From assembly GCA_000004985.1 (NCBI GenBank), contig GG739529.1: DNA of 1,151 nt; one strand, written 5' to 3'. The notes beneath the pieces are model-generated. The model searched no databases. It was not told where the DNA came from and was given only the letters and a program-made list of their open reading frames with translations. A program made the position numbers and the translations under genes. This DNA is from Naegleria gruberi (Eukaryota). This document shows positions 1-1,151 of the stretch, one piece after another; position 1 is the stretch's first letter, and every line of letters starts with the position of its first letter.

Positions 1-653
1 GAAACTTTCAAGACAAACTCAACTGAACCACATTCGTTCTTCAATAAAAAAACGTTTCCTGGATATGCAAATGTAGCCCAGAAAGTTGAGATTGGGGCTG
101 AATATCCGTGAGAAGTTTGATTTCCTTCCTCGTCTACCCTAAATACATTATATTTCCTAGATGTATCATTTCTAATGCTAATATCCACAAGTTCATGTCC
201 ATCAAATCTTGACCTAATTAATTTCCAATCCTCCTCACGAGCTTTTGTCATCTTGCAAATTGTTACGTGTTTTGATTGGTCCTCAATTATTTCTTCCTCT
301 ATCTCCTCCACTTGATCACCCACTACAATTTCTTCATCATCTTCATCAACCATTTTCCCATCCCTCTCCTCATCATACATAAATGTTCCAGGAACAACCT
401 CAAAATAATCAACAGTCTCTTCTGTCGGAACAAAAATCGATACAACCTCCCTCTTCTCATCATTCATTCTTCTCATTATGAAAGGATGAGTAGCACCAGC
501 TTGCTGACAACATTTCCCGCCAGAATTTAAAACTGTAAACGGTTGTTCATTTCCCTCATAATCAATCCAAATCATTTGAATGGGCTCGGAAAGAGTGTTA
601 TGGAAAATGATTGGACATTTGTGATCCCATCTCTTGGCACATAGTTTTTTCAT
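1..653 (-). CDS. Protein with two tandem VHL beta-domain-like repeats and an acidic linker. The 5' end is complete (ATG 653-651) and the 3' end is cut by the window edge.
   Basis: Manual reverse-complement translation gives an open frame from ATG 653-651 to position 3, 217 codons, with 2 nt left over. An in-frame upstream stop TGA lies at 674-672, and six A's precede the ATG (AAAAAAATG). Translation: MKKLCAKRWDHKCPIIFHNTLSEPIQMIWIDYEGNEQPFTVLNSGGKCCQQAGATHPFIMRRMNDEKREVVSIFVPTEETVDYFEVVPGTFMYDEERDGKMVDEDDEEIVVGDQVEEIEEEIIEDQSKHVTICKMTKAREEDWKLIRSRFDGHELVDISIRNDTSRKYNVFRVDEEGNQTSHGYSAPISTFWATFAYPGNVFLLKNECGSVEFVLKV... Residues ~14-76 align without gaps to human pVHL residues ~73-135 (recalled from memory): IIFxN...W.IDYEGNEQPF..L..GG.....H.F.....IFVP versus VIFCN...WLNFDGEPQPY..L.PGTG...H.W...ELFVP. 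Residues ~156-217 repeat the N..(F/W)x(I/V)D.EGN.Q core (DEEGNQT versus DYEGNEQ). The sense strand is purine-rich, and the codon usage (AGA, CCA, GGA) fits a coding region. The high confidence refers to it being coding and the lower to the VHL-like call. Confidence 0.72.
   Translation of the reverse strand, partial: MKKLCAKRWDHKCPIIFHNTLSEPIQMIWIDYEGNEQPFTVLNSGGKCCQQAGATHPFIMRRMNDEKREVVSIFVPTEETVDYFEVVPGTFMYDEERDGKMVDEDDEEIVVGDQVEEIEEEIIEDQSKHVTICKMTKAREEDWKLIRSRFDGHELVDISIRNDTSRKYNVFRVDEEGNQTSHGYSAPISTFWATFAYPGNVFLLKNECGSVEFVLKV
331..348. repeat. Perfect 9-bp tandem duplication (tcttcatca x2), in frame within the acidic linker.
   Basis: 331-339 and 340-348 are both tcttcatca. On the coding (minus) strand this is GATGAAGATGATGAAGAA, encoding D103-E108 (DEDDEE). 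Confidence 0.9.
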
Positions 654-1053: not shown

Positions 1054-1151
1054 TTATTTCTCAATTGTTGAATTGAGTTTGAGTTTGACAATTTCCATCT
1101 CTGATTTGTGAACTCGCCTTACTTCCTCTTTCATTTCCTTATATTCTTCTG
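1054..1151 (-). CDS. Possible 3'-terminal coding segment of a separate upstream minus-strand gene. It has a K/E-rich, coiled-coil-like tail, and its 5' part lies outside the window.
   Basis: The minus-strand frame entering at 1149 reads EEYKEMKEEVRRVHKSEMEIVKLKLNSTIEK and then a TAA stop at 1056-1054. That is 31 codons with no stop in AT-rich DNA. The sense strand is purine-rich, and a minus-strand AATAAA lies about 186 nt downstream, at 868-863. The ORF is short and could be chance. Confidence 0.3.
   Translation of the reverse strand, partial: EEYKEMKEEVRRVHKSEMEIVKLKLNSTIEK

Follow-up and report, generated by a model that had tools for sequence, protein, structure and literature searches.

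What is a VHL-type beta domain doing in a protist gene, and can its pocket still read hydroxyproline? pVHL is the standard example of a hydroxyproline reader, and no handle for proteolysis-targeting chimera (PROTAC) degraders is used more widely; discussions of its beta domain usually treat it as an invention of animals that is linked to HIF. We analysed a 1,151-nucleotide stretch of Naegleria gruberi DNA (GenBank assembly GCA_000004985.1, contig GG739529.1; the whole stretch is called the window here), the minus strand of which carries an open reading frame (ORF) with two VHL-beta-like repeats separated by an acidic linker (Table 1). We consider it fairly probable that the two repeats are a VHL-beta pair on a protist calpain, and that repeat 1, its pocket remodelled, serves as a divergent docking module.

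Register and fold of repeat 1

Repeat 1 is a genuine VHL-type beta-sandwich domain. Four tests (BLASTP, Pfam, a family hidden Markov model (HMM), and hhalign) placed it on human pVHL in one and the same ungapped register, with an offset of 59. BLASTP aligned amino acids (aa) 15-45 of the window protein with residues 74-104 of human VHL (a query identical in sequence to PDB 8qvu_F) at an E value of 1e-4, and Pfam PF01847 (VHL beta) matched aa 11-64 with 22 bits (gathering cut-off 21, E = 1.7e-4). When 1.84 billion representative proteins were searched exhaustively with HMMER, 93 relatives were recovered; the family HMM was trained on 257 repeats from 92 of them, with the window and human VHL excluded. 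It scored aa 9-79 of the window protein at 73.5 bits and residues 68-125 of human VHL at 49.4 bits, without gaps and on the same model positions. A profile-profile alignment had been proposed as a check when the window was initially annotated; hhalign, which compared the first repeats of six VHL-calpains with nine tetrapod VHLs, left the register unchanged (probability 98.5%, E = 1.8e-15).

No alternative register brings back Ser or Tyr at the pocket sites. The initial annotation covered positions 360-575, which are exactly codons 27-98 of the minus-strand ORF. It had matched W29 and H56 with human W88 and H115, taken human G93, Q96, and P97 as identical, and listed Y98, S111, and W117 as replaced by F39, A52, and F58. 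All of these assignments are borne out in the common register, and the codons of the window residues G34, Q37, and P38 were confirmed in the ORF.

The AlphaFold2 model of the window protein had a predicted local distance difference test (pLDDT) score of 85-96 for aa 11-95 and 77-92 for aa 130-217, with a disordered stretch between. The alignment used for the model still mis-registered two family members (P0001 and P0074), and the model was confident nonetheless. In a Foldseek comparison with the PDB, the top 50 matches were all pVHL chains (probability 1.00), with a root-mean-square deviation of about 2-3 Å over 80-90 columns; searching the PDB directly by sequence gave no match to the window protein at E ≤ 10. 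With a significant profile match and the N19, W29, G34, and H56 core in place, repeat 1 is a member of the VHL-beta repeat superfamily. The ORF itself is not expected by chance: the probability of a stop-free frame of 217 codons at the base composition of the window is about 1e-8.

Table 1. Features located in the window. Amino-acid numbers are those of the minus-strand ORF; L001 is the closest relative (see text). The last column gives residue frequencies in the family repeats at the corresponding position; these are somewhat inflated by the way in which the family was collected.
Feature	Position	Strand	Evidence	Family column
ORF, 217 codons	3..653	minus	Translation; ATG at 653-651, frame still open at window base 1	
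VHL-beta-like repeat 1 (aa 9-95)	369..629	minus	Pfam PF01847, family HMM, hhalign, AlphaFold and Foldseek	
W29 = human W88, conserved	567..569 (TGG)	minus	Register	W 87%
F39 = human Y98, hydroxyl lost; common to L001	537..539 (TTT)	minus	Register	Y 64%, F 6.6%
A52 = human S111, hydroxyl lost; Thr in L001	498..500 (GCT)	minus	Register	T/S 90%, A 6%
G53 = human Y112, aromatic ring lost; Ala in L001	495..497	minus		Y/F 81%, G 2%
H56 = human H115, conserved	486..488 (CAT)	minus	Register	H 82%
F58 = human W117, Trp to Phe; common to L001	480..482 (TTC)	minus	Register	W 82%, F 11%
Acidic linker (aa 96-128), predicted disordered	270..368	minus	pLDDT <50 at aa 96-127; ~53% D/E over aa 94-127	
VHL-beta-like repeat 2 (aa 129-217)	3..269	minus	HMM match at aa 156-207 (window 33-188), 21.2 bits; pLDDT 77-92	
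Possible 3' end of upstream neighbour gene, weak evidence	1054..1149	minus	31 open codons up to a TAA, six-frame translation	

Pocket residues of repeat 1

In pVHL, the hydroxyl of the hydroxyproline is hydrogen-bonded by S111 and H115, and the hydroxyl of Y98 binds the backbone carbonyl of the hydroxyproline (PMC9528729). The initial annotation had assigned the reading of the hydroxyproline to the hydroxyls of both S111 and Y98. That holds for S111, acting together with H115, but not for Y98, whose hydroxyl holds the carbonyl. Neither repeat of the window protein carries the complete W88/Y98/S111/H115/W117 pocket: the five positions read W, F, A, H, F in repeat 1 and R, H, A, N, F in repeat 2.

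The pocket of repeat 1 keeps its aromatic walls and histidine (W29, F39, H56, and F58). It has lost the Ser/Thr hydroxyl partner of the histidine (A52), the Tyr hydroxyl that contacts the backbone of the ligand (F39), and the aromatic residue at Y112 (G53). The view that the hydroxyls were lost and the aromatic cage kept is correct in that the Trp, the His, and two further aromatics remain, but it needs to be amended for G53, where an aromatic residue is gone as well. The change at the Y112 equivalent had not been recorded in the initial annotation; Y112 forms the aromatic left-hand wall of the peptide groove of pVHL. The repeat-1 pattern N-W-F-A-H-F is unique among 261 family repeats, in which Ala in the S111 column is usually accompanied by loss of the His, and the combination of Ala with His is rare.

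The closest relative, L001, is a 2.7-kb metagenomic contig (ENA ERZ929261), 59% identical over the N-terminal 217 aa. N19, W29, G34, and H56 are identical in the two proteins, as are the aromatic residues at positions 39 and 58. The substitutions are shared with this relative in the case of F39 and F58 but not in that of A52, and the stretch around S111 and Y112 reads CCQQAGATHPF in the window and CCQQTAATHPF in L001. Since L001 has Thr at the S111 site, the loss of Ser/Thr at A52 appears to be recent and specific to the window lineage, unless it is a one-base error in a single contig.

Between the window and L001, the ratio of nonsynonymous to synonymous substitution rates (dN/dS) was 0.17 for the ORF and for repeat 2, and 0.19 for repeat 1. 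The values are approximate; both repeats are under purifying selection. Because repeat 1 is under such selection, we infer that it still binds something, and the pocket face is the presumed binding site because it is the conserved feature of the family. Repeat 1 may no longer tell hydroxyproline from proline, or may bind a different and more hydrophobic motif. The earlier suggestion that the pocket no longer selects for hydroxyproline is plausible in view of A52, which removes one partner of the Ser/Thr-His dyad, and of G53. We give about even chances to a pocket that still binds a ligand but does not select for hydroxylated proline. A literature search for hydroxyproline binding by S111A or Y98F pVHL found nothing usable.

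Calpain-linked relatives

The protein of L001 was reconstructed by correcting a one-base frameshift and removing one 47-nt GT-AG intron. The resulting protein of 585 aa matched Pfam VHL with 34 bits and Peptidase_C2 with 173 bits. In its C-terminal half, it matches the protease core of calpain-9 (E = 1e-33), and the catalytic Cys, His, and Asn line up. It also aligns end to end with Naegleria fowleri XP_044567457.1 (FDP41_010723, UniProt A0A6A5C8B3; 36.8% identity, E = 5e-129), which is labelled 'Calpain catalytic domain-containing protein'. The nearest named relative of the window protein is therefore this N. fowleri protein, and not a nematode or other animal VHL.

Two VHL-beta domains with a CysPc domain after them were also found in four further metagenomic proteins (P0074, P0029, P0028, and P0066), and a Peptidase_C2 domain is also recorded in P0019, P0074, and P0029. 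The contigs of P0074 and P0029 carry eukaryotic neighbour genes (Ras, Arf, enolase, Med26, F-box, and GST). The window protein has two N-terminal VHL-beta domains with a linker between them, as in these calpains. It is most likely the N-terminal 37% of a calpain-type protease of about 580 aa from an intron-poor protist, as judged from its homologues; by the same homology, the C-terminal half outside the window would be a calpain-type cysteine protease of the CysPc-only kind. The two VHL-beta domains would then most likely be docking or recognition modules before the calpain core, and would not serve a Cullin-2 ubiquitin ligase.

Further relatives were sought elsewhere. JGI metagenome contigs, searched with peptide patterns and with a degenerate DNA pattern for HGYxAPISTFW, contained no relative, and none was found in viral contigs. 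In one protein index the window protein had no match and the six-sequence family alignment had a single weak match; as known representatives were also missed by that index, these negatives carry little weight. A longer contig from the organism of the window did not come up in any of these searches.

Two observations concern the L001 contig itself. The frameshift at L001:777, within repeat 1, consists of a single G where the window has the whole codon K47. Since dN/dS is low on both sides of it, it is probably either a fault of the assembly or a lesion of very recent origin. Downstream of the calpain gene, L001:2485-2673 (minus strand) encodes a small hydrophobic protein that by eye resembles a PMP3/UPF0057-type proteolipid; such a neighbour fits a compact eukaryotic genome.

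The acidic linker and repeat 2

In both length and acidity, the linker of the window protein far exceeds those of Naegleria and the other calpain-linked relatives. In repeat 2, all five pocket positions are replaced (R172, H182, A196, N200, and F202; pattern NRHANF). The corresponding repeat 2 of Naegleria and of P0028, P0029, and P0074 keeps the Trp, the Ser/Thr, and the His. BLASTP of repeat 1 against repeat 2 detected no similarity, and their kinship is visible only with the family profile. Repeat 2 retains no pocket and probably acts as a scaffold.

The wider family of VHL-beta repeats

Among the 93 relatives are bacterial proteins of some 2000 aa that carry 8-12 repeats in tandem (e.g., P0002-P0009), small two-repeat proteins of bacteria, and a SAM-TIR-VHL protein of Paulinella (P0011, Paulinella chromatophora EP00457_P001545). 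A chytrid protein has eight repeats and an annelid protein nine (Owenia fusiformis CAH1793445.1 is among the family examples). VHL-beta repeats were seen joined with SAM and TIR (P0011), with SH3 and MORN (P0036), or with beta/gamma-crystallin and a large membrane-spanning C-terminus (P0002). These three fusions represent a range of effector or scaffold partners.

The family consensus is F-x-N...W-x-D-Y-x-G-x-E-x-x-Y...Q-x-T-[YF]-x-T-H-P-W. The best-conserved columns of the repeat are those that form the hydroxyproline site in pVHL, and the N78 column has N in 97% of the family repeats (see Table 1 for the others). The human pentad W-Y-[S/T]-H-W is complete in 143 of the 261 repeats, and at least one repeat with it occurs in 68 of 91 proteins. 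The Ser/Thr and His positions co-vary strongly: both are present in 208 repeats, Ser/Thr only in 23, His only in 4, and neither in 23 (odds ratio 52; the count is descriptive, since the repeats share ancestry). In some proteins (P0058 and P0035) the pair has changed jointly to A-Q in every repeat. Such covariation points to a conserved dyad for reading ligands, far beyond HIF signalling in animals. As the pocket residues are the most conserved ones across the family, ligand binding at the pocket is, on this reading of the alignments, the ancestral job of the VHL-beta domain.

It was reported previously that an accessory protein of type X retrons carries a VHL beta domain, the function of prokaryotic VHL beta domains being stated as unknown (PMC7736814). 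At one bacterial VHL-repeat locus we found no prolyl hydroxylase gene as a neighbour, a single locus being too few to conclude from.

Weighing the alternatives

The initial annotation had taken repeat 1 for a divergent paralogue of vhl-1, which would make it a substrate receptor of an Elongin-Cullin E3 ligase beside a canonical vhl-1 in an animal genome. Its VHL-beta domain is indeed significantly similar to pVHL. However, the visible window protein has neither a VHL_C/alpha domain (VHL box, PF17211; no match even at E ≤ 10, against 101 bits for human VHL) nor a BC-box motif ([STP]LxxxCxxx[VILA]), the beta domain is followed by the acidic linker and a second beta domain, and the relatives continue into a calpain, the nearest named one being from Naegleria. 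For these reasons the nematode paralogue was rejected and an E3 receptor is extremely improbable, while the accompanying statement that the gene is not the canonical VHL orthologue proved right. In the E3-ligase sense, the sequence argues that the window protein is not a VHL orthologue or paralogue at all, and it would have no link to Elongin C and Cullin-2. A more serious contender is that repeat 1 is still a hydroxyproline reader, in which H56 and the box of W29, F39, and F58 suffice, the lost hydroxyls being replaced by water or by an adjacent side chain, and the protease is still directed to prolyl-hydroxylated targets. The His, the Trp, and two aromatics are kept, repeat 1 is under purifying selection, L001 keeps Thr at the S111 site, and Phe occurs in the Y98 and W117 columns of otherwise canonical repeats (NWFTHW eight times, NWYTHF four times). 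We nevertheless regard it as unlikely, since pVHL reads the hydroxyl by S111 and H115 jointly and holds the carbonyl by the Y98 hydroxyl (PMC9528729), His without Ser/Thr occurs in only 4 of 258 family repeats, and three groove positions have changed at once in addition to G53, a combination seen in no other repeat.

The opposite possibility is that the repeat-1 pocket is out of use and decaying, and that only the fold is retained, as a spacer or a dimerisation module of the protease, or else that A52 results from an error of sequencing or assembly in a contig of low coverage. Repeat 2 is conserved with none of the five pocket residues, so the fold can persist after the pocket is lost, the L001 frameshift lies inside repeat 1, and A52 is one base away from Thr or Ser. 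We think this quite unlikely all the same, given an intact ORF, the retention of W29, H56, N19, G34, and the aromatics at 39 and 58 in a state identical to L001, and a dN/dS for repeat 1 that is no higher than elsewhere in the protein. A broader scheme would treat the VHL-calpain fusions as reader-proteases, in which a hydroxyproline/proline-degron reader of pVHL ancestry feeds targets to a cysteine protease without ubiquitin. In protists they would represent an ancient parallel to the PHD-VHL axis, and the window variant would have lost the reading of the hydroxyl. We hold this scheme to be distinctly doubtful. If it were true, the changes from Ser/Thr to Ala, from Tyr to Phe, and from Y112 to Gly would free the protease from its dependence on prolyl hydroxylation and hence on oxygen; and the pentad kept in most bacterial and protist repeats would mean that the reading of hydroxyproline or proline by this fold long predates animal oxygen sensing.

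The explanation that we prefer, a VHL-beta pair on a protist calpain with a remodelled docking pocket in repeat 1, has several points to contend with. The ORF leaves the window at aa 217, and the calpain half is extrapolated from L001 at 59% identity. dS is near saturation (1.2-1.8), which makes the dN/dS values approximate, and the conservation percentages are somewhat inflated because the family was collected by similarity to the window. A52 is known from one contig of unknown coverage and is one base from Thr or Ser. Phe in the W117 column is frequent in the calpain-linked clade (7 of the 13 repeats) and may be neutral, and the retained H56 could hydrogen-bond a hydroxyl, possibly with water replacing the Ser hydroxyl. 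Our search of the literature on non-metazoan VHL-beta domains found only the retron accessory protein and one purely computational paper.

Remaining features of the window

No convincing ORF was found in positions 654-1151. Scans of the whole window for tRNAs and Rfam families gave no match, nor did a comparison with a collection of phage DNA. The 31-codon frame that reads in from the window edge at 1054-1149 translates as EEYKEMKEEVRRVHKSEMEIVKLKLNSTIEK. If this is the tail of an upstream gene, an intergenic or promoter region of about 400 bp may be left between the two genes. A patch at 690-830, upstream of the VHL-beta gene, has a G+C content of about 42%, compared with about 31-36% in the non-coding remainder to its right, and contains a 10-bp inverted repeat (764-773/786-795). 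A structured RNA in this patch was considered and rejected: the fold z-scores were positive on both strands and no better than those of shuffled sequences, and there was no Rfam match.

Comparison with known systems

The VHL-beta domain belongs to a far wider family than pVHL, and in one protist clade it is wired to a calpain protease and not to a ubiquitin ligase. As a single-window result ours is modest, as it concerns one divergent member of the family, the protease half of which is deduced from relatives. The window variant may also be regarded as a natural experiment on the pocket, and could show which contacts make it hydroxyl-selective.

Compared with pVHL (human P40337; C. elegans VHL-1), the beta-sandwich fold is the same, with the PF01847 domain in common and an ungapped alignment. 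F76, N78, W88, G93, Q96, P97, L101, and H115 of pVHL are identical in repeat 1, and F91, Y98, and W117 are replaced by other aromatics. S111, Y112, Y98, and W117 have become Ala, Gly, Phe, and Phe, respectively. In the window the VHL-beta domain is moreover duplicated in tandem, and in the relatives it is fused to a protease instead of serving an E3 ligase.

N. fowleri FDP41_010723 has the same two N-terminal VHL-beta domains as the window protein, and its repeat 1 likewise has Phe at the W117 position. Unlike the window protein, it has retained the Ser of the S111 position in both repeats, the second of which reads W-Y-S-H-F. Repeat 1 of P0074, P0029, and P0028 is fully canonical (W-Y-T-H-W), again unlike that of the window. 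The long acidic linker and the pocket-dead repeat 2 set the window lineage apart from the Naegleria protein and from these calpain relatives. The bacterial and other eukaryotic VHL-beta repeat proteins share the repeat family and consensus with the window, but mostly keep the complete pentad, and their partner modules are beta/gamma-crystallin, TIR, SAM, MORN, SH3, or IHF.

Among calpains, a survey listed 24 partner domains in 41 architectures, with VHL-beta not among them (PMC3563603). The VHL-beta and calpain architecture was not found in that survey or elsewhere in the searchable literature; as far as we could find, this combination of a known fold with a known protease family is present in sequence databases and has no description in the literature. 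The logic of the combination is the same as in the WW-, MIT-, Zn-finger-, and TPR-CysPc calpains, in which a binding module precedes the CysPc core, the WW domains being known to bind proline-rich peptides (PMC3563603).

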